Below are positions 13,788 through 52,719 of a stretch of 59,500 bases of DNA, one piece after another. Position 1 is the stretch's first letter, and each line of letters opens with the position of its first letter. A program made the position numbers and the translations under genes. The notes under the pieces are model-generated. The model was not told the DNA's origin. It did no database searches and was given only the letters and a program-made list of their open reading frames with translations. This stretch comes from Pirellulales bacterium (GTDB lineage: Bacteria; Planctomycetota; Planctomycetia; Pirellulales; UBA1268). The stretch covers positions 1 to 59,500 of the forward strand of contig JBIIQM010000005.1 of NCBI GenBank assembly GCA_044342075.1, given 5' to 3'.

Positions 13788-13950
13788 GACGCACGTTTTG
13801 TAACCCGCGGCGGGCCGCTCGGCAAGGGCCGCGGCCGGCGCCGAGCGGCCGCGTTGAGGGTTTTCGTCCGGGCCGGTACATTTCCGCGTTCCCGGACAAG
13901 GGCAGGCTCGCAAGGCCTCCGCCCACTCACCAGACAACGGAGGTTTCAAG

Positions 13951-24552: not shown

Positions 24553-24762
24553 AGTCGATCCAAGCCAGTTATACCCGGCCGAGGGGGCGAATTCCCGCAC
24601 GACTCCACCGAGCGACGATTGATTGACTGTTTTGGAGCCTTGACCTACCCTTGCATTTGTGAGGAATGTGTGAGCGCGGGGCGGACGTCCCGAACGTTGT
24701 CCAAGAGTTGTACAAGACCGGATCGACACTGGACTGATCCTTTTCAAACTGCCGAGGTGCCC

Positions 24763-32545: not shown

Positions 32546-34261
32546 ATGCGACCCACACGATACCCCACCGCAATCCTGTTCCTCGTGGCTCTCTCCGGCC
32601 TGGCGGCCGGCTGCGCGGGACCGGCGATCCGCAGCCAGAGCCCCGAGGTCGAGGCGCTCATCAACCTCGAGGCCGACACCAAGCACGTCGGCGATTACGC
32701 CACGCCCTGGGGCACCGCGCCGCAACGGATCGAGCGGGCGGCGCTCGTCACCGGGCTCCCGGGCACCGGCAGCGATCCGCCGCCCGGCCTGCAACGGCAG
32801 TCGCTCATGGCCGACATGCAGTCGCGCGGCGTCGTCGAGCCCAACAAGTTGCTTGCCTCGCCGTCGACGGCGCTCGTCTGGGTGCATGCCTACCTGCCCC
32901 CCGGCGTGCAGAAGGGGGATCGTTTCGACATCCACGTGGAAGTGCCGCCGGACAACGACACCACGAGCATCGCCAACGGCTGGCTGATGGAGACGCGGCT
33001 CGCCGAGATGGCGGTGCTGGGCAACCGAGTGCGCGACGGCCACGTGCTCGGCGTGGCGGAAGGGCCGCTGCTCGTCGATCCCGTCTCGATGGGCACGCTC
33101 GACTCGAAGGCGAAACTCCGCGCCCGGGTGCCGGGCGGCGGTGTCTCGCTCACCTCGCGGTCGATCGGCCTGATCCTCGCCCCGGAACACCGGTCCGTCG
33201 CGCTCTCCAAGCGGCTTGGCGACACCATCAACAAGCGTTTCCATGCCGTGATCAAGGGGAGCAAACGCGGCGTCGCCACGCCGAAGACCGACCGCTTCGT
33301 CGAACTCGAGGTGCCGCCGGTCTATAAGCGGAATCTCGACCGCTACATCCGCGTGATCCGCGCCGTGGCCGTGGTGGAGCCGCCCGCCGGACGGCATGCC
33401 CGGCTCGAACTGCTCGACCGCCAACTGGCGGATCCGGTCACCGCGCCGTCGGCCGCGCTGCGGCTCGAGGCGATCGGCAAGGAAGCGATCCCCACGCTCC
33501 GCAAGGGACTCGAGTCGAAGGATGCCGAGGTGCGGTTCGCCGCGGCCGAGGCCCTGGCCTACCTCGGCGAATCGGTGGCCGCGAGCCACCTGGCCGACGC
33601 CGCAGGCAGCCTGCGCAGCGCCCGCCCCGCGGCGATCGCCGCCCTCGGCGTGCTCGACGACGCCAACGGCATCGACGCCCTGCAGGGACTCCTCTCGAGC
33701 GTCAGCGCGGAAACGCGTTATGGCGCCTTCCATGCCCTCTGGCAGATGGATTCGTCCGCACCGCTCATCCGCGGCGAGAAGCTCGCAGATGCTTGCTCGC
33801 TCCACGTGCTCGACGTGGAGGGGCCACCGCTCGTCCATATCACGCGCAGCCGCCGCCCCGAGATCGTGCTCTTCGGCGTCGAACACCCGCTGGCCGACGG
33901 CCTCCGCGCCGAAGCCGGGCCGTCGATCGTCGTGGTCGTCGAGTCGGGCCGGGCCGCCATCAGCTGCTTCGTGGCCGGGCAGCCTGACCAGAAGCTCGAC
34001 GTGCCCGCGCGAGTCGATGAGGTCGTCCGGGCGATCGTGCAGCTGGGCGGCACCTATCCCGATGCGGTGCAGTTTCTCCAGCAGGCGAGCTCGAGCCGCT
34101 GCCTCGACAGCCGGCTCGCCTTCGACGCCCTGCCGGCCGCCGACGACGGCCGCATGAGCCTCCACCAGGAGGCGACCCAGCGCGGCCGCGAAACGCCCGA
34201 CGACAACGACACCGCCCGCGATGACGCCCCCAGGAGCGACCGCACGGACGAGTCGTCATGA
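32546..34261 (+). CDS. FlgI (P-ring)-like lipoprotein with HEAT-like repeats
   Basis: Lipobox LAAGC; LVTGLPGTGSD, A(L)VWV..LPP, GDRFDIHV, GWLMETRL FlgI-like motifs; helical repeats EVRFAAAEALAYLG. Confidence 0.75.
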   Translation: MRPTRYPTAILFLVALSGLAAGCAGPAIRSQSPEVEALINLEADTKHVGDYATPWGTAPQRIERAALVTGLPGTGSDPPPGLQRQSLMADMQSRGVVEPNKLLASPSTALVWVHAYLPPGVQKGDRFDIHVEVPPDNDTTSIANGWLMETRLAEMAVLGNRVRDGHVLGVAEGPLLVDPVSMGTLDSKAKLRARVPGGGVSLTSRSIGLILAPEHRSVALSKRLGDTINKRFHAVIKGSKRGVATPKTDRFVELEVPPVYKRNLDRYIRVIRAVAVVEPPAGRHARLELLDRQLADPVTAPSAALRLEAIGKEAIPTLRKGLESKDAEVRFAAAEALAYLGESVAASHLADAAGSLRSARPAAIAALGVLDDANGIDALQGLLSSVSAETRYGAFHALWQMDSSAPLIRGEKLADACSLHVLDVEGPPLVHITRSRRPEIVLFGVEHPLADGLRAEAGPSIVVVVESGRAAISCFVAGQPDQKLDVPARVDEVVRAIVQLGGTYPDAVQFLQQASSSRCLDSRLAFDALPAADDGRMSLHQEATQRGRETPDDNDTARDDAPRSDRTDESS

Positions 34262-37200
34262 CCAGGCTCAAAGCACTCGAACTGTTCGGCTTCAAAAGCT
34301 TCGCCGACCGGACGCGCTTCGAGTTTCCCGAGGGCATCACGGTCGTCGTCGGCCCGAACGGCTCCGGCAAATCCAACGTCGTCGACGCCATCAAGTGGGT
34401 GCTCGGCGAGCAGTCGATGCGCAGCCTCCGCGGCCGCGATGCGACCGACGTGATTTTCGCCGGCTCCGTGTCGCGCAAGCCGCTCAATGCCGCCGAGACG
34501 TCGCTCATCTTCGACAATTCCGCCCGTGCGCTGCCCGTCGAGCAGGACGAGGTGCAGATCACGCGGCGCGTCTATCGCAGCGGCGAGAGCGAATACCTCG
34601 TCAACGGCGAGATCTCGCGGCTGCGCGACATCCGCGAACTCTTCTCGGGAACGGGCGCCGCGACGGAGGCTTACAGCGTCATCGAACAGGGACGCGTCGA
34701 CGCGCTGCTCGTGGCGTCGGGCCGCGACCGCCGGGCCGTCTTCGAGGAGGCTGCGGGCATCACGAAATTCCGCGCCCGCCGGACCGAGTCGCTGCGGCGG
34801 CTCGAGCGCACCGAGCAAAACCGGCAGCGGCTCGCCGACATCGTCGGCGAGGTGTCGAGCCGGCTCGACACCGTGCGGCATCAGGCCGCGCGGGCCCGCC
34901 GCTATCGCTTGATGACCGACCGGCTGCGCACGCTGCGGCTGTCCGCCGCGGCGGAGGATCTGGCCGAGGTCGATGCCTCGGTGGCGGCCGTCGATGCGGC
35001 GCTCGCCGCGCTGCGGCAGGATTTCGCCACGGCCGAGGCCGAGGCGACCCTCGCCGCCGGACGCACCGCCGAACTCGAACGCATCCAATACGACCTCGCG
35101 CCCCGTCTGGCCGACGCGCAAGACCGCGTCACGGCCGACAAGCAGCGGGCGGCCGCCGCCGAAGCCACGCTCGCACTCCTGCGGCAGCGGCGCGCGGAGA
35201 TCGAGGGAGACGTGGCCCGGCACGAGGCGGGCGCGCGCGAGGCGGCCCAACGGCTGCGCGACGCGGTCGGCGCGGTGGAGGATGCCCGCGACCAGGCCGA
35301 GACGATTCAAGCCGAGCTCTCCCGCATCCACGCCGAACTGGCCTCCCACGAGCAGGCCGCCGCCGGCTCCCACCAACACGTCGCCGACCTCCGCGGCCGG
35401 CTGGCCGAGCAGTCCGCCCGCGGCGCCGAGCTCGAGCGGCGACGCCTCCGGCTCGAGTCCGACGCCGACCGCGCGGCCGCCAGCGTCGAAGAAGCGCGGC
35501 GGCGAATCGACGCCGGCCGCGAAAAAATAGACGCCGCCCGCCGGCAGCAGGCGCTGCTCGCCGAATCGATCGCCACCCGGGAAGGCAATGTCGCCGCGCT
35601 CGCGGCGCGGCTCACCGCGACGGATCGCGAGATGGCAGCGCTCGAGGCCGAGCAGCGCGAGCGGGCCATCGCGCTCGATCAGGCCTGGCGCGATCTGGCC
35701 GGCTGGCAGGCCAAGCTCGAAGCATGCCTCGAACGCAAGGGCATGCTCGAAGAACTGGTGGGCCGGCACGAAGGGCTTTCCGACGCGGCGAAGCGGCTGG
35801 TCGGTTCCGAGTCGGCCCAGTCGGCGGTGCCGGGACTGCATGGTGTGCTCGGCGACTTGATCGACGCCCCCGTGGGCTGGGCTCACCTCGTCGACCTCGC
35901 ACTCAGGGATCGTGCCCAGAGCCTCGTCGTCGATTCGCTCGACGATCTCGTCCGCTGGTTTTCCCTCTGGTCCGATTCGGCCGAGGCGCAGGCGACGCTC
36001 GTGGCCGGCGGCCGCGTCAGCTTCACGGCGCTGGACGATTCGCAAGAGGCTGCCGCCGAAGGCTTCGATGCCTCGGGGCATCCCGGCGTGGTCGGCAGGC
36101 TCGACCGGCTCGTCGAGACGGAGCATGCGTCGGACCGCCACCGGCAGATCGCCCGCCGCTGGCTCGGCAGGGTGTGGGTGGTCGAGCGACTCGACCACGC
36201 GGAGGCTCTTGTGCGGGTGGCGCCGGCGGGAGTGCTCGTCGTCACACGCGGCGGCCAATGCCTCTCGACCGACGGCACGTTCGAGATCGGCACGCCCGCC
36301 GCGGCCAGCGGGATCGTCAGCCGCCGCAGCGAGCTGAGGGCGGTCACGACGCGGCACGAGGAACTCACCCGCACCGTCGCGGCCACCGCCGAGTCGATCA
36401 ACGGCCTGCAGGCGGAACTTGCCGAACTGCAGCAATCGATCCGGCGGCTCCATGCCCGCCGGCAGCAGGAGGCGGACACCATCGCCTCGTCCCGCGCCGA
36501 ATTCGAGCGGCTCACGCGCGACCGTTCGGCCGGCAGCCAGTCGCTCGCCGCCGCCGAGGCCGCCGCGGTCGACGCGGAGCGGGATGCCGTCGCGCTCGCC
36601 CAAGCCCGCGAGGCGGCCGACACCGCGCTCGCCGAGCATCTGGCGGCATTGGAAGCGACCCGGCGGGACATCGCCGCGACGCAATCCGCCCTCGACTCGC
36701 TCGATCGCGATCGCGGCGAGGTGATCGACGCCATCCATCGGCTGCGGATCGAGCAGGCCACCAGCCAGGAGCGGCTCGCCCGCAGCCACGATGCCGTCTC
36801 CACCCGCCGCGGCGACCTCGAAGCCCGCCGCGCCGATCTGGAAGCTGCCCGCGACCGCCGCGCCGTCGCCGAGCAGCGGCTCGACAGCCTCGATTCGGAA
36901 CTCCTCGCCGCGCAATCGGCATTCGCCGAGGCGATGACCGCCGCCGAACGATCGGGGAACGAGCTCGCCGAGTTCACCGCCACTCGCGATGCGCTCCTCA
37001 CCGACAAGGCAGCCTCGAATGCCGCCGCGGAGGCCGGCCGCGCCGCAGCCACCCGGTTCGGCGAGGCGATCCACACGCAGGAACTCGATGCGGGCGAGGC
37101 CCGCCACCGCCGGGCCCGGATCATCGAACGCATCCGCGACGAATACGACCTCGATATCGAAGCCGAGATTCGAACGCGGGCCGAGCACGAAGCGGCCGCC

Positions 37201-37929
37201 GGCCCGGAGACGCCGGCCGATGCGGCGCCGATCCCTGCCACGCGGCCGGAACTCGACGCGGAGATCGAGGAGCTGCGGCGGAAGCTCGCCTCGATGACCT
37301 CCGTGAACCTCGAGGCGTTGGCGGAGGCGGAGGCGCTCGCCGAACGGCTCGCCACGCTCGAGGCCCAGCTCGCCGACGTGACGAATGCGAAGCAGTCGAT
37401 CGAGCAGCTCATCGCGCGGATCGACGACGAGAGCCGCCGGCTCCTCGGCGAGACGATCGAGACCGTCCGCGGCCATTTCCGTGAACTCTTCGAGCGGGTC
37501 TTCGGCGGCGGTCAGGCCGACATCGTCCTCGACCCCGAGATGGACCTGCTCGACACCACCGTCGAGATCGTGGCCCGCCCACCCGGCAAGGAACCGCGCA
37601 GCATCTCGCTCCTATCCGGCGGCGAGAAGACGATGACCTGCGTCGCCCTGCTCCTGGCGATCTTCCGGTCGCGGCCGAGCCCCTTCTGCGTGCTCGACGA
37701 GGTCGATGCCGCGCTCGACGAGGCCAACGTGGATCGCTTCGTGGGGGTGCTGCGCGACTTTCTCTCGTCCACCCAGTTCATCATCGTCACCCATTCGAAA
37801 AAGACGATGGCGGCGGCGAACACCCTCTACGGGGTCACGATGGAGGAGTCGGGCGTCTCGAAGCGGGTTTCCGTCCGGTTCGAGCCGCACGCTGCCGTGG
37901 CCAGCCGGCCCGCGGCCAAGGCCGCGTAA
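34258..37929 (+). CDS. smc: Chromosome segregation protein SMC
   Basis: GFKSF, VVGPNGSGKSN, hinge GLHGVLGDLI, LSGGEKT, LDEVDAALD, THSK. Confidence 0.97.
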   Translation: MTRLKALELFGFKSFADRTRFEFPEGITVVVGPNGSGKSNVVDAIKWVLGEQSMRSLRGRDATDVIFAGSVSRKPLNAAETSLIFDNSARALPVEQDEVQITRRVYRSGESEYLVNGEISRLRDIRELFSGTGAATEAYSVIEQGRVDALLVASGRDRRAVFEEAAGITKFRARRTESLRRLERTEQNRQRLADIVGEVSSRLDTVRHQAARARRYRLMTDRLRTLRLSAAAEDLAEVDASVAAVDAALAALRQDFATAEAEATLAAGRTAELERIQYDLAPRLADAQDRVTADKQRAAAAEATLALLRQRRAEIEGDVARHEAGAREAAQRLRDAVGAVEDARDQAETIQAELSRIHAELASHEQAAAGSHQHVADLRGRLAEQSARGAELERRRLRLESDADRAAASVEEARRRIDAGREKIDAARRQQALLAESIATREGNVAALAARLTATDREMAALEAEQRERAIALDQAWRDLAGWQAKLEACLERKGMLEELVGRHEGLSDAAKRLVGSESAQSAVPGLHGVLGDLIDAPVGWAHLVDLALRDRAQSLVVDSLDDLVRWFSLWSDSAEAQATLVAGGRVSFTALDDSQEAAAEGFDASGHPGVVGRLDRLVETEHASDRHRQIARRWLGRVWVVERLDHAEALVRVAPAGVLVVTRGGQCLSTDGTFEIGTPAAASGIVSRRSELRAVTTRHEELTRTVAATAESINGLQAELAELQQSIRRLHARRQQEADTIASSRAEFERLTRDRSAGSQSLAAAEAAAVDAERDAVALAQAREAADTALAEHLAALEATRRDIAATQSALDSLDRDRGEVIDAIHRLRIEQATSQERLARSHDAVSTRRGDLEARRADLEAARDRRAVAEQRLDSLDSELLAAQSAFAEAMTAAERSGNELAEFTATRDALLTDKAASNAAAEAGRAAATRFGEAIHTQELDAGEARHRRARIIERIRDEYDLDIEAEIRTRAEHEAAAGPETPADAAPIPATRPELDAEIEELRRKLASMTSVNLEALAEAEALAERLATLEAQLADVTNAKQSIEQLIARIDDESRRLLGETIETVRGHFRELFERVFGGGQADIVLDPEMDLLDTTVEIVARPPGKEPRSISLLSGGEKTMTCVALLLAIFRSRPSPFCVLDEVDAALDEANVDRFVGVLRDFLSSTQFIIVTHSKKTMAAANTLYGVTMEESGVSKRVSVRFEPHAAVASRPAAKAA

Positions 37930-38087
37930 AGCAGCGAAAAACACCGGGCAACAGCCGTTGCAACCGGTCCCACGGTCCTGTCCCCGACATGCGCACCACC
38001 CGGTGCCACCGTCCTTTTCGCGAAGAACGTCTCAAGTCTCACCACAGGATCTTTCGATCTACCCTCTCGGACGGTCATGCCGCGAAC

Positions 38088-38338
38088 GTGTCCGGGTTGA
38101 ACCCGAGCCCGTTTCAGCGGTGTGGATGCAGGGGGGGATACCTGCGAGTCGCCGCGTCCGGCGGAAGCATCCTTCGGGTTGCCTCCCCGCCGTTCGCCTT
38201 CTCAGAGCCCCCTCTCTGCAGCCAGCCGGCCTGCATGGGGCGCGACGACGCGGTCAAACCCCAAGGCAAGCGAACCGCGTCAGGGGGGCTGTGTCCGTTA
38301 CCCGAAAGGGACGGGCTGGCCAAATCGGTTCCGGACAC
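38088..38338 (+). ncRNA. Candidate structured RNA (unassigned), 5-prime of the Xis-HTH/receiver gene
   Basis: Nested helices GTGTCCGG/CCGGACAC, AGCCCGT/ACGGGCT, AGCCCCC/GGGGGCT, GACGCGGT/ACCGCGTC, a C-UUCG-G hairpin and a CCC-GAAA-GGG hairpin. Confidence 0.55.
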
Positions 38339-38363
38339 AAAAGATCGAAATGGAGTTGTTGCG

Positions 38364-38936
38364 ATGAAGGTTTTCACGACAGGCCAGGTCGCCAAGATCT
38401 GTAAAGTTGCTCCCCGCACGGTGAGCAAGTGGTTCGATTCCGGTCGCCTGAAGGGCTACCGCATCCCCGGCTCGCAGGATCGCCGCATCCCGCGGGAATA
38501 CCTGATCAAGTTTCTGAAAGAGCACGGCATGCCGCTGGGCGACCTCGAAGACGAGGCGATGGCGAAGGTGCTGCTCGTCGGCCAGGACCAGGTCCTGATC
38601 GAAAACCTGAAGAAGCACCTGCCGGTCGAGAAGTCGTTCAAGATCCAGGTCGCCGCGAGCGGCTTCGAGGCCGGCATCCAGGCCGAGAGCTTCCACCCGG
38701 ACTGCATCGTGGTGGACTACGCGATCGGCCGGATCGACGCCCAGCAGATCTGCCAGAACCTCCGTCGCAACACGGAATATGCCGACACGATCGTGATCGC
38801 CCTGCTGCCGGACGACGGCTCGCAGATCACGGTCGATCGGGCCCACGTCAACGAGAGCTTCAAGAAGCCCTTCGACGTGGCCCTGCTCGCCGAGCGGCTC
38901 CGCACGCTGATCGGCGCCCGCAAAGAACTGGTCTGA
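38364..38936 (+). CDS. Excisionase-type HTH fused to an atypical receiver domain
   Basis: FTTGQVAKICKVAPRTVSKWFDSGRLKGYRIPG HTH; receiver-like VLLVGQD...VVDY...KKPFD; SD GGAG at 38352. Confidence 0.85.
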   Translation: MKVFTTGQVAKICKVAPRTVSKWFDSGRLKGYRIPGSQDRRIPREYLIKFLKEHGMPLGDLEDEAMAKVLLVGQDQVLIENLKKHLPVEKSFKIQVAASGFEAGIQAESFHPDCIVVDYAIGRIDAQQICQNLRRNTEYADTIVIALLPDDGSQITVDRAHVNESFKKPFDVALLAERLRTLIGARKELV

Positions 38937-44160: not shown

Positions 44161-44268
44161 GATGCCGATGAGAGGCCCACCGCACAAAGAGACGACTGCT
44201 TATGGCTGCTGCGGTTAGGCCCTGACCAAGTTCACAGGTCCCCATCGCAGGGGCCTCTCATCGGCACC
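44161..44268 (-). ncRNA. ffs: Signal recognition particle RNA (4.5S)
   Basis: Long terminal stem (GGTGCCGATGAGAGGCCC / GGGCCTCTCATCGGCATC), helix-8 core GTGAAC..GGTCAGG....AGCAGCC, directly upstream of dnaX. Confidence 0.9.
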
Positions 44269-44331
44269 CGCACCGACAGTGTTTTGTACGCCCCGGGTGC
44301 CATGCGGTCAAAGGCTGCTACATTTCCCGCC

Positions 44332-46848
44332 ATGGCGTCCCCGATGATGCAGCAGTTCGAGGCGGCGAAGGCCCGGTGCCCGGGGGCGCTCGTCCTCTTT
44401 CGCATGGGCGACTTCTACGAGCTCTTCGGCGACGACGCCCGCGAGGCGGCCACGCTCCTCGACCTCACGCTCACCAGTCGCGACAAGGGGCCCGACGCCA
44501 TGCCGATGGCCGGCTTCCCCCACCACCAGCTCGACGTGCAATTGGTGAAGCTCGTCGCCGCGGGCCGCCGCGTCGCCATCTGTGAACAAATCGATGATCC
44601 GAAAACGACGAAGGGGCTCTTGCGCCGCGAGGTGACGCGGATCGTCACGCCCGGCATCGTCGCCGATGAATCGCTGCTCGATCCCGCCCGGCGCAACCAT
44701 CTCGTGGCCGTCTTGCCGCAGGCCGTCGCCTCCCGCGACGCGGACGAGATTCGCGTGGGCCTCGCCTGGATCGACGTGGCCGCGGGGCGGTTCGAGTGCG
44801 CCGTGGTCTCCCGCGACGACGTGGCCGATCACCTGCTCCGCCTCGACCCCACCGAGGTGCTTTGCGCGGAAAAGGATCGCGAGCCGGTCGACGAGATCGT
44901 CCGCATGACCGGCGGCCGCCGTGCCGTCACGTGCCGGCCCGACTGGTGGTTCGACGACACGACGGCGCGGGCGGCCGTGGCGAAGGCCCTCGGCGGCCTG
45001 CGGCTCGAGGGGCTCGGCTTCGACCTGCCCGCCGACCTGCCGGGCGTGCTCGCGGCGGGGGCGATCGTGGCCTACCTCGAGGAGAACGAGCCCTCGGCGA
45101 TCGCCCGCATCGACACCATCGCCGCCTGGCGGCCCGGCCACCGCCTGGAGATCGACGAGGCCACGCGGCGGAGCCTCGAGCTCGTGCGCGGCGTCGCCTC
45201 CGGCACCCGCGAAGGCTCGCTCGCCGGCGTGCTCGACCGCACGAAGACGCCGATGGGCGCGAGGCTGCTCGTCGAATGGCTCTCGGCCCCGCTGGTGGAG
45301 AAGCCGCGGATCGACGAACGGCTCGATGCGGTCGAAGCGCTCGTCGGCGATGAGTCGCTCGCCCGGCGCATCGCCGCGACGCTCACGGGCGTCGGCGACC
45401 TCGAACGGCTCACCAGCCGCGTCGTCTCCGGCCGCGCCGGGCCGCGCGATCTCGAGCGGATCGGCCGCGCCATGGCGGTGCTGCCCGAGCTCGTGGCGGC
45501 GCTCGGCCCGTGCGGCGGTCTGCTGGCCGACCTGCGCGAGCGGCTCGATCCCTGCGACGACCTTTCGAGTCGGATCGGCGCGACGCTCCGCGAGGGCTGC
45601 CCCGTCTTCGCCCGCGATGGTGGCTTCATCCGGCCCGGGTTCGACGCCCGCTACGACGAGCTCGTGGAGATGGCCTCGGGGGGCAAGGCCTGGATCGCCG
45701 AGTATCAGGCCCGCGAGATCGAGCGGACGGGAATCCCCACGCTCAAGGTCGGCTTCAACCGGGTGTTTGGGTTCTTCCTCGAGGTGAGCCGAACGCAGGC
45801 GGCGAAGGTGCCGGCCGATTACATCCGCAAGCAGACGGTGAAAAACGCGGAGCGCTACACGACGCCCGAACTCGACGAGCGGCAGCGGCAGGTGCTCGGC
45901 GCCGAAGACGAGGCGACCCGCCGCGAGATCGAACTGCTCGAGCAGTTGCGGCTCTTCGTCGCCGAACATCGCGTTCGGCTCGACCGGGCGACGGCGGTGC
46001 TGGCCGAGATCGACGTGCTCGTGGCGCTGGCCGACGTGGCGCGGAGCCGCGGCTGGGTGCGGCCCGAGATCACGGAGGGCGCGGAGCTCCTGATCGAGGA
46101 GGGACGTCACCCGGTGCTCGAGGAACTCCTGCCGCCAGGCACGCTCGTGGCCAACGACCTCGCCCTCGCGGGCCGCTCAGGCAACGCGGCGGGCACTCGC
46201 TCCCCTGCCATCCTGCTCGTCACCGGCCCAAACATGGGCGGCAAGAGCACGTTCATCCGGCAGGCCGCGCTCGTTGCCGTGCTCGCGCAGGCCGGGAGCT
46301 TCGTGCCGGCGAAGCGGGCAGTCGTGGGAATCGTCGACCGGCTCTTCGCGCGGATCGGCGCGGGCGACGATCTTGCCCGCGGCGCGAGCACGTTCCTCGT
46401 GGAGATGGCGCAGACGGCGCGGATCCTGAACCGCGCCACGCCGCGGAGCCTCGTGATCCTCGACGAGGTCGGCCGCGGCACGAGCACCTACGACGGCCTG
46501 GCGATCGCGCAGGCGGTGATCGAGCACCTGCAGGCGGGGCCCGGCTGCCGCACGCTCTTCGCCACCCATTATCTCCAGTTGGCCGCGCTCGAGAGGCTGC
46601 CTTGCGTGGCCAACGTGCAGGTGCTCGTGCAGCAGCACCGCGACCAGCTCGTGTTTCTCCACCGCGTGGCCCCCGGCGCCGCCGACAAGAGCTGGGGTGT
46701 GCACGTGGCGCGGCTGGCGGGCGTTCCCGGCGGCGTCATCGAGCGGGCCCGCGACCTGCTGCTCGAGTTCGAAGCGGGCACGGCCGCCGCGCCGGCGAAG
46801 CCGCGCAAGAAGGCCGAGCCCGCCGACCAGCTCCCGCTCTTCGAGTAG
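44332..46848 (+). CDS. mutS: DNA mismatch repair protein MutS
   Basis: FRMGDFYELF, TGPNMGGKST, STFLVEM, DEVGRGTST, FATHY, C-terminal clamp-binding-like QLPLF. Confidence 0.97.
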   Translation: MASPMMQQFEAAKARCPGALVLFRMGDFYELFGDDAREAATLLDLTLTSRDKGPDAMPMAGFPHHQLDVQLVKLVAAGRRVAICEQIDDPKTTKGLLRREVTRIVTPGIVADESLLDPARRNHLVAVLPQAVASRDADEIRVGLAWIDVAAGRFECAVVSRDDVADHLLRLDPTEVLCAEKDREPVDEIVRMTGGRRAVTCRPDWWFDDTTARAAVAKALGGLRLEGLGFDLPADLPGVLAAGAIVAYLEENEPSAIARIDTIAAWRPGHRLEIDEATRRSLELVRGVASGTREGSLAGVLDRTKTPMGARLLVEWLSAPLVEKPRIDERLDAVEALVGDESLARRIAATLTGVGDLERLTSRVVSGRAGPRDLERIGRAMAVLPELVAALGPCGGLLADLRERLDPCDDLSSRIGATLREGCPVFARDGGFIRPGFDARYDELVEMASGGKAWIAEYQAREIERTGIPTLKVGFNRVFGFFLEVSRTQAAKVPADYIRKQTVKNAERYTTPELDERQRQVLGAEDEATRREIELLEQLRLFVAEHRVRLDRATAVLAEIDVLVALADVARSRGWVRPEITEGAELLIEEGRHPVLEELLPPGTLVANDLALAGRSGNAAGTRSPAILLVTGPNMGGKSTFIRQAALVAVLAQAGSFVPAKRAVVGIVDRLFARIGAGDDLARGASTFLVEMAQTARILNRATPRSLVILDEVGRGTSTYDGLAIAQAVIEHLQAGPGCRTLFATHYLQLAALERLPCVANVQVLVQQHRDQLVFLHRVAPGAADKSWGVHVARLAGVPGGVIERARDLLLEFEAGTAAAPAKPRKKAEPADQLPLFE

Positions 46849-52143: not shown

Positions 52144-52638
52144 ATGACGACGTCCGATGTCCTGCGTTCCCTGCTGCTCGACCGCAGCGTGGCGGCGCTC
52201 GCCACGCTGCACGACGGGCGGCCGTTCGCCTCGATGATCCCGTTTGCCGCGCACGTCGCGGCGGGGAGGCTACGGCTGGTGACGCACGTGAGCGGCCTTT
52301 CGTCGCACACTCGCGACATGCTGGCCGCGCCGGAGGTCTGCCTGCTGATCACCGCGGCCGACTCGCCCGACGTGATGCCCCAGGCCCTGCCACGGGTATC
52401 GATCCCGGCGGTGGCCGAGTTCATCCCCCCCGAACACCCCGACCATGAGTCGCTGAAAGCGGCCTATCTAAGGAAGTTTCCGCACGCGGCTGATTTCTTC
52501 ATGCTCGGAGATTTCTCGCTCGTCGCGCTCGAGCCCACCTCCGCGCGGCTGATCGCCGGCTTTGCCCGGGCGCAGACGCTCACTGCCGACGCGCTCGCCG
52601 CCGCGGTCGGAGGGGCGACTCACCGACGCCCGGCATGA
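52144..52638 (+). CDS. Pyridoxamine 5-phosphate oxidase-like / HugZ-family FMN-binding protein
   Basis: ALATLHDGRPFASMIP, SGLSSHTRDM, QALPRVS, DFSLV, AGFARA. Confidence 0.85.
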   Translation: MTTSDVLRSLLLDRSVAALATLHDGRPFASMIPFAAHVAAGRLRLVTHVSGLSSHTRDMLAAPEVCLLITAADSPDVMPQALPRVSIPAVAEFIPPEHPDHESLKAAYLRKFPHAADFFMLGDFSLVALEPTSARLIAGFARAQTLTADALAAAVGGATHRRPA

Positions 52639-52719
52639 AAAGCCGGGGGTCGCCTGGAAGCCGGTGGTTTTCGAGCCCCGCTGACGATCGCAGCCTCGCG
52701 GGGTATATTTTTGCATCAG

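Follow-up and report, generated by a model that had tools for sequence, protein, structure and literature searches.

A covarying multi-domain RNA in the leader of a conserved helix-turn-helix/receiver regulator gene in a family of Pirellulales

Introduction

Long regulatory 5′ leaders are carried by the messenger RNAs (mRNAs) of master regulators such as rpoS and csgD of Escherichia coli. These leaders run to several hundred nucleotides (nt), consist of several domains, precede a transcription-regulator gene and contain an upstream strand that can pair with the ribosome-binding site. Here we describe a putative leader with the same properties from a Pirellulales bacterium of the Planctomycetota. 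It was found in a 59,500-nt stretch of DNA (GenBank assembly GCA_044342075.1, contig JBIIQM010000005.1, positions 1 to 59,500 of the forward strand; hereafter the window), 5′ of a gene for a 190-amino-acid protein that combines an HTH_17 helix-turn-helix (HTH) domain with a response-regulator receiver domain. The new leader has no sequence or structural homology to those of rpoS and csgD and, unlike them, it contains a covarying pseudoknot domain and is conserved throughout a family. A master-regulator mRNA leader such as that of rpoS would still be the closest working analogy, rather than a classic metabolite riboswitch.

Riboswitches with pseudoknotted aptamers share with this leader a compact conserved domain with covarying stems, an invariant core, overlapping alternative helices and a position 5′ of a coding region. 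They differ in that the gene context here implies no ligand, the domain has no match in Rfam and occurs in one family only, and the leader has neither a terminator nor a clear sequestering helix with covariation. 6S RNA (RF00013) is likewise a non-coding RNA of a few hundred nucleotides that lies beside a protein gene, but the leader is made of five separate local domains and not of an end-closed rod with a central bubble. It would also have to be the sole 6S locus of its genome, whereas in relatives 6S RNA sits at other loci. From the Planctomycetes themselves, the Rhodopirellula-1 motif has been described as a candidate cis-regulatory RNA, a single bulged hairpin with 153 reported representatives that lies 5′ of short hypothetical genes (Weinberg et al. 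2010, PMC2864571). Its consensus is unrelated and it is repetitive, in contrast to the single-copy, multi-domain leader. Rhodopirellula-1 was the only named planctomycete motif that our literature search found, and the search returned no published description of the leader element. We propose the leader as a new candidate family of structured cis-regulatory leader, matching no described RNA family.

Results

Conservation of the leader and its domains

The leader contains a plus-strand, multi-domain structured RNA of ~290 nt, the pairings of which are kept by selection in every member of the family. We collected 110 orthologous loci and treated as family-level those with a regulator protein identity of at least 93%. 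The profile of our first alignment recovered the leader (~38015 to the ATG at 38364) at full length in each of the 73 family-level loci for which the upstream sequence is complete. The other family-level loci gave partial profile matches, and comprise three truncated records and four loci with rearranged or diverged 3′ parts. In BLASTN comparisons spanning the genus and the family, identity in the intergenic gap is 68-96% between ~37997 and the ATG. The leader always lies directly 5′ of the same 190-amino-acid HTH_17 and receiver gene and is associated with no other gene; in its own genome it is single-copy, and the block at 38022-38072 likewise occurs once. The following features were identified, all on the plus strand.

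38022-38072, plus strand: conserved unstructured 5′ block (GAAGAACGnCTCAAGTC ... TTTCGATCTA ... GGACGG), the 5′ edge of conservation
38075-38125, plus strand: 5′ hairpin domain, with a lower stem UCAUGCCGC/GCGGUGUGG (38075-83/38117-25) and an upper hairpin (38085-38114)
38128-38145, plus strand: invariant G-loop hairpin GCAGG-GGGGGAUA-CCUGC, stem 38128-32/38141-45, with a G-rich loop
38146-38203, plus strand: long three-tier variable hairpin, with a C-UUCG-G cap at 38172-77 in the window
38209-38286, plus strand: pseudoknot domain, closed by CCCC/GGGG (38209-12/38283-86)
38287-38321, plus strand: 3′ hairpin, GGCUG/UGGCC, then GUCCGU/ACGGGC, then a CCC-GAAA-GGG tip
38329-38338, plus strand: nearly invariant UUCCGGACAC, a candidate switching or anti-Shine-Dalgarno strand (putative function)
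38352-55, plus strand: Shine-Dalgarno sequence GGAG, invariant in relatives
38364-66, plus strand: start codon ATG of the HTH_17 and receiver gene

Covariation supports the structure

Folded on its own, the window sequence gives little indication of this structure. The minimum free energy of 38080-38345 was -122.3 kcal/mol, compared to -116.2 +/- 5.6 kcal/mol for dinucleotide shuffles, which corresponds to a z-score of -1.09 for the plus strand, and the minus strand of the same stretch gave z = -1.65. Single-sequence folding is thus not significant, and the window alone does no better than chance. The structure rests on the comparison of 67-68 distinct relatives by interval folding, column-pair scans, pair counting and three covariance models, which were short-calibrated and give rough E-values. 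RNAalifold on a plain MAFFT alignment recovered the invariant helices only, because the variable hairpins are misaligned there. Scored on the whole-element MAFFT alignment (A4, 67 distinct sequences), the adopted structure was 91.0% paired, compared to 33-49% in slid controls, and contained 111 double-change cells against 36 +/- 5 in shuffles (0/500), a control that, here and below, ignores phylogeny. Separate tests of single domains agree with this result. The model-based alignments used for several of the domains were fitted to the structure and are biased towards it; the MAFFT-based counts, which are free of that bias, agree with them.

The 5′ hairpin domain ends in a CGGGU-UGA-ACCCG tip, and on the MAFFT alignment all eight of the eight pairs scored in its lower stem carry compensatory changes. 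On the model alignment A8 the domain was 86% paired (slid controls, 33-49%), with compensatory changes at 13 of 21 pairs, compared to 6.1 +/- 1.5 in shuffles (0/500). The stem of the adjacent G-loop hairpin is invariant and 100% paired in 67 sequences, and its pairing is suggested by conservation and not by covariation. Although its 68 distinct sequences are only 39% identical to one another, the long variable hairpin has a mean fold z-score of -3.17. Its pairing on the model alignment A6 was 91.4% (slid controls, 35-54%), and compensatory changes were seen at 18 of its 25 pairs; 140 double-change cells were counted where shuffles gave 44 +/- 6 (0/500). For the 3′ hairpin the model alignment A10 (57 distinct rows) was 93.8% paired, with four compensatory pairs and 23 double-change cells, compared to 6.1 +/- 2.0 in shuffles (0/500).

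Within the pseudoknot domain an inner hairpin at 38236-63, UGGGG..GAC-[GACGCG]-GUC..CCCCA, presents a loop that pairs with a downstream CCGCGUC to form the helix 38247-54/38274-81. This helix, GACGCGGU/ACCGCGUC in RNA letters, is 99.7-99.8% paired with three compensatory pairs, among them an A-U to G-C change in 11 sequences and a C-G to U-A change in eight. The stems of the 38236-63 hairpin are 78-82% paired and show compensatory changes at six of nine pairs. Combined in one model, the domain was 89.8% paired (slid controls, 44-54%), with 10 of 21 pairs compensatory. The C-run/G-run closure was paired in 94-96% of cells with changes on one side only, and such homopolymer runs allow several registers that covariation cannot separate. 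The distances would fit an H-type pseudoknot, with a first loop of 1-2 nt, a second stem of 6-7 base pairs and a return linker of 8-14 nt. The overlapping helices of 38209-38286 may form a pseudoknot or a two-state switch, which these data do not distinguish. In one record (L077, JBJTIE010000250.1) a partial inverted copy of the pseudoknot region lies at 98-199 of the minus strand, beside the forward copy at a contig end, and is probably an assembly artefact.

A first-pass annotation of the window had drawn an unrecognised multi-helix RNA of ~250 nt at 38088-38338, and all the helices that it listed are literally present in the sequence. That a structured RNA lies here is borne out by the covariation found in four modules among the upstream regions of orthologues, but the fold as drawn is not, as the comparative structure differs. 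Its GCAGG/CCTGC hairpin, its C-run/G-run domain closure, its GACGCGGT/ACCGCGTC helix (the loop helix of the pseudoknot) and its CCC-GAAA-GGG hairpin all recur in the comparative structure, and its UUCG-capped hairpin at 38160-38191 is the upper part of the longer hairpin 38146-38203. Comparison does not support the architecture built on two long-range closing stems. At the single positions of the 8-base-pair closing stem 38088-95/38331-38 pairing is only 58-87%, and compensatory changes are absent; its 3′ strand is invariant, but its 5′ strand, which forms part of the covarying 5′ hairpin, has been lost from at least eight sequences. In the 7-base-pair inner stem 38106-12/38311-17, six of the seven positions are paired in only 25-64% of cells, and TGCAG/CTGCA is not kept in relatives. 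An alternative fold had also been suggested in which GGATGC pairs with either GCATCC (38167-72) or GTGTCC (38291-96); the former partner lies inside the variable hairpin and is not conserved, and GTGTCC is conserved among relatives.

Two further candidate structures were considered and set aside. A long-range helix GGUCA/UGGCC (38073-77/38317-21) is 94-99% paired but invariant, and was not adopted because both of its strands belong to covarying helices, those of the 5′ and 3′ hairpins. A G-quadruplex was rejected on inspection only, the G-runs being 45-100 nt apart.

Strand, coding potential and transcription

The plus-strand reading of the first-pass annotation is supported by both fold stability and G·U pairs. 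Of 68 sequences of the long hairpin, 55 fold more stably on the plus strand than as the reverse complement (p = 7e-9), as do 49 of 61 sequences of the 3′ hairpin (p = 5e-8), and plus-strand folds contain two to four times more G·U pairs. Both measures favour the plus strand for the structured RNA. We observed no sign of translation within the leader: the AUG at 38076 is not conserved among relatives and the lengths of insertions and deletions in the variable hairpins spread over all three residues modulo 3, which together indicate that the region is not coding and led us to reject a small open reading frame there. We detected nothing resembling a terminator between the structured core and the gene on the plus strand. 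Together with the strand asymmetry, this absence gives indirect support for plus-strand transcription that would continue into the gene.

Comparison with known RNA families

A search with the 4227 covariance models of Rfam 15 gave no match in 37930-38364 at the gathering threshold, as the first-pass annotation had expected of an RNA belonging to no known family. At E <= 10 there were three chance-level matches of 8.7-17 bits, to families with thresholds of 38-50 bits. Rfam likewise had no match in 18 loci from other Pirellulales families. The 6S model RF00013 had no match at E <= 0.01 in the source genome, nor in any of the 25 genomes of the family (G000-G024), and matched in 6 of 16 other Pirellulales families. 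6S RNA in the source family would appear to be either very divergent or missing.

A candidate switching strand upstream of the Shine-Dalgarno sequence

UUCCGGACAC, which is nearly invariant, lies 13-22 nt 5′ of the Shine-Dalgarno sequence, and the 13-nt gap given earlier between 38338 and the GGAG at 38352 is correct. This strand has several possible partners. Its GGACAC segment can pair with GUGUCC at 38291-96; that helix is 75-97% paired, with one pair changing from G-C to A-U in seven sequences from two lineages. A weak pairing of the strand with GUGUCCGG at 38088-95 is also possible; its duplex energies have a mean z of -2.1, and some lineages carry the complementarity to UUCCGGACAC on the opposite arm of the 5′ hairpin instead. 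The UUCC of the strand can pair with the Shine-Dalgarno GGAG, and this helix is invariant and 92% paired. In 72% of 67 leaders, pairing of the Shine-Dalgarno sequence is predicted at P > 0.5, the predicted partner being UUCC at about -33 in 20 sequences and, in 18, a GAUCC box at about -18. We rejected a helix between the TTTCGATC box of the 5′ block and AGATCGAAA near the Shine-Dalgarno sequence, as the downstream box changes without compensation.

Long leaders in other Pirellulales families

The same leader profile had no match in other Pirellulales families. Orthologues of the regulator in those families, and in the sister order, also stand behind leaders of ~450-600 nt or more, which share a 5′ box CTAAAGTC-N15-TCGAAACTAAC-GGAAGG, a hairpin GCAGGGGGG(A)A-CCUGCC and a Shine-Dalgarno context UGGAGAGCC. 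These shared landmarks indicate that the association of the gene with a long leader is old, and that most of the architecture described here is family-specific. The G-loop hairpin is the only structural module also present in other families: GCAGGGGGG(A)A-CCUGCC lies 425-491 nt 5′ of the orthologous ATG in 21 of 28 loci from other families whose upstream sequence exceeds 400 nt. A rough alignment of 19 of these longer leaders held too little signal to resolve a structure.

The conserved 5′ block

The block at 38022-38072 lies outside the 38088-38338 interval of the first-pass annotation. Its mean pairwise identity is 82% and its mean fold z-score +0.12, which is no fold signal, and landmarks related to it (CTAAAGTC-N15-TCGAAACTAAC..GGAAGG) are present in other Pirellulales families. 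These properties suggest a specialised promoter or operator, with transcription that may start just 3′ of the block, near the GGACGG at ~38069. For comparison, the genes for RNase P RNA, signal recognition particle RNA and two transfer RNAs are preceded by a sigma-70-like TTGACN-N17-TAYAAA, usually after GGG(T), which is a usable house-promoter consensus for this organism. The upstream regions concerned are listed here.

24553-24640: sigma-70-like upstream region
44263-44350: sigma-70-like upstream region
13788-13870, minus strand: sigma-70-like upstream region
52630-52719, plus strand: sigma-70-like upstream region

A housekeeping promoter in the 5′ block was rejected, as a TTGACN-17-TAYAAA-like pattern is lacking there. 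A sigma-28 (FliA) promoter was also rejected: the spacing is 2 nt off and the genome is without flagellin, with no match to PF00669. A genome-wide scan for sigma-28-type motifs gave 23 matches where shuffles gave 8-15, and the open reading frames beside the matches showed no informative pattern.

The regulator gene and its surroundings

The window has a G+C content of 68%. The gap that contains the structured RNA is 435 nt long and is bounded by the following genes.

34258-37929, plus strand: SMC gene, 5′ neighbour of the leader gap
38364-38936, plus strand: HTH_17 and receiver regulator gene (190 amino acids), 3′ neighbour of the gap

The position in the leader of an HTH/receiver gene given by the first-pass annotation is thereby confirmed, and the next gene after the regulator is moaC. 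In Pfam the regulator matches HTH_17 in its N-terminal part (4.9e-10) and Response_reg in its C-terminal part (2.6e-9). Its HTH domain is nearest to the excisionase (Xis) and BldC families, and the best NCBIfam match, a BldC-type HTH, scores 33 bits against a cut-off of 77, leaving the protein without a curated family name. Across the Pirellulales, 40 of 41 relatives encode it at 83-100% identity; in the sister order identity is ~69%, and a paralogue of ~36% identity is present in each genome. The protein is an uncharacterised regulator, probably with a central role, and it is among the most conserved regulators of the Pirellulales. The reading frame is open for 125 codons 5′ of the ATG here (37989-38936); among relatives the open length varies from 2 to 121 codons, and an N-terminal extension was therefore rejected as a GC-rich artefact.

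Eleven of the records used (L031, L036, L043, L044, L057, L061, L071, L072, L076, L082 and L086) are public metagenome-assembled genome entries titled Candidatus Kuenenia, Chitinophaga or Chitinophagaceae. The regulators that they encode are 95-98% identical to the Pirellulales regulator, and the labels on these records are probably wrong.

Discussion

The region at 38068-38363 on the plus strand is probably a structured 5′ untranslated region of ~295 nt, belonging to the mRNA of a conserved orphan HTH-receiver regulator. Conservation continues unbroken from the RNA into the Shine-Dalgarno sequence and the ATG. We propose that the leader controls expression of its own gene in cis, and that translation initiation is the step most likely to be affected. 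GUGUCC at 38291-96, GUGUCCGG at 38088-95 and, via UUCC, the Shine-Dalgarno GGAG would compete for UUCCGGACAC, such that access of the ribosome to its binding site would depend on how the upstream domains are folded. A protein, a small RNA or a ligand, bound at the pseudoknot domain or the G-loop hairpin, may determine that fold.

Several observations weigh against this proposal. The predicted sequestration of the Shine-Dalgarno sequence is no more than moderate (P = 0.43 in the window) and involves different partners in different lineages. The anti-Shine-Dalgarno pairing and several of the long-range pairings are invariant, so that covariation cannot test them. Two types of leader, that of L018 (G016:C8) and the L020 type, carry inserts between the structured core and the Shine-Dalgarno sequence, which weakens a strictly distance-dependent anti-Shine-Dalgarno mechanism. 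Outside the family, only the G-loop hairpin and the 5′ block are recognisable, the other domains being lineage-specific. As to the inserts themselves, those of L018 total well over 100 nt in the 3′ part of the leader, and that of the L020 type (L020/L085/L088/L089) is a local hairpin CUUGC..GCAAG followed by GUUGUGU.

Other explanations for the conservation have to be set beside this one. If the effector were a metabolite or ion, 38209-38286 would be the aptamer of a riboswitch and the UUCCGGACAC/Shine-Dalgarno region its expression platform. A compact, ~80-nt pseudoknotted domain with covarying stems and a strictly invariant core (GACGCGG, CCGCGUC and GGGGGGCUG), placed immediately 5′ of a coding region, is what such a model would lead us to expect, as are the two pairs of overlapping, competing helices, both with compensatory changes. 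We nevertheless regard a riboswitch as unlikely. The domain is tied to a single regulator gene and never to transport or metabolic genes, which suggests no ligand, and nothing points to cyclic di-GMP, named in the first-pass annotation, or to any other named ligand. No platform of the terminator type is present, no Rfam riboswitch matches, and the putative aptamer is unrecognisable outside one family, though the gene and its long leader are older. It is possible, if doubtful, that the leader is instead bound by a protein, either the HTH-receiver protein in an autoregulatory loop or a CsrA-like global RNA-binding protein at GGA motifs. The 3.3-Mb source genome (G000) encodes four CsrA paralogues (C135:14004-14159, C60:462-617, C160:14152-14301 and C98:7882-8052), GGA is invariant at 38069, 38333 and 38352 (the Shine-Dalgarno sequence) and recurs in the loop of the G-loop hairpin, and the paired stem nucleotides that never vary suggest sequence-specific recognition. 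Yet GGA is not enriched, with 7.9 per leader compared to 6.2 expected. A CsrA dimer bridges paired sites that are closer together than ~220 nt, and the G-loop hairpin lies about that far from the Shine-Dalgarno sequence, beyond the spacing of known dimer-bridged sites.

It seems improbable that the RNA is the product of a separate small RNA gene, whether trans-acting or, as the first-pass annotation had suggested, 6S-like, that merely lies 5′ of the regulator. Such a gene would accommodate the inserts that some lineages tolerate between the structured core and the Shine-Dalgarno sequence, and the lack of a 6S match in the family's 25 genomes, that of the source included, is consistent with it. 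Against it stand the missing terminator between core and gene, the conservation that runs on into the Shine-Dalgarno sequence, and an architecture of hairpins in a row with a pseudoknot, where 6S RNA forms a rod with a central bubble. In the six other Pirellulales genomes with a 6S match, moreover, that match lies on a contig other than the regulator's, and five of the six also carry the long G-loop leader; the 6S-like reading is rejected. The last alternative, that there is no RNA function at all and that the conservation marks DNA-level promoter or operator sites in a long intergenic region, we consider scarcely credible. It would explain why the 5′ block is conserved without structure and why the single-sequence fold is no better than shuffles. 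It is rejected by the dozens of compensatory double substitutions that keep pairing intact and by the strand asymmetry of G·U excess and stability, and the variable hairpins also keep their shape at 39-42% identity.

Returning to the cis-acting leader, a more specific proposal can be made, which we offer as speculation: a sensing RNA of a new class, with a ligand or a protein as its signal, might gate synthesis of the orphan HTH-receiver protein as a master regulator, with the order-wide G-loop hairpin as an ancestral sensor core and the pseudoknot as a family-specific elaboration. If this were true, an RNA switch would stand at the top of an uncharacterised planctomycete regulatory hierarchy.

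With this leader, uncultured freshwater bacteria yield an undescribed and well-supported RNA family of several domains, with a covarying pseudoknot and possibly switching helices, and the alignment and the three covariance models can seed a family description. Planctomycetes have an unusual cell biology and, to our knowledge, their gene regulation is almost unstudied; we know of no described function for the regulator downstream of the leader. The leader offers a concrete handle on the pathway of this regulator, and a large, selected RNA structure before the regulator in every genome implies that it is under tight post-transcriptional control.

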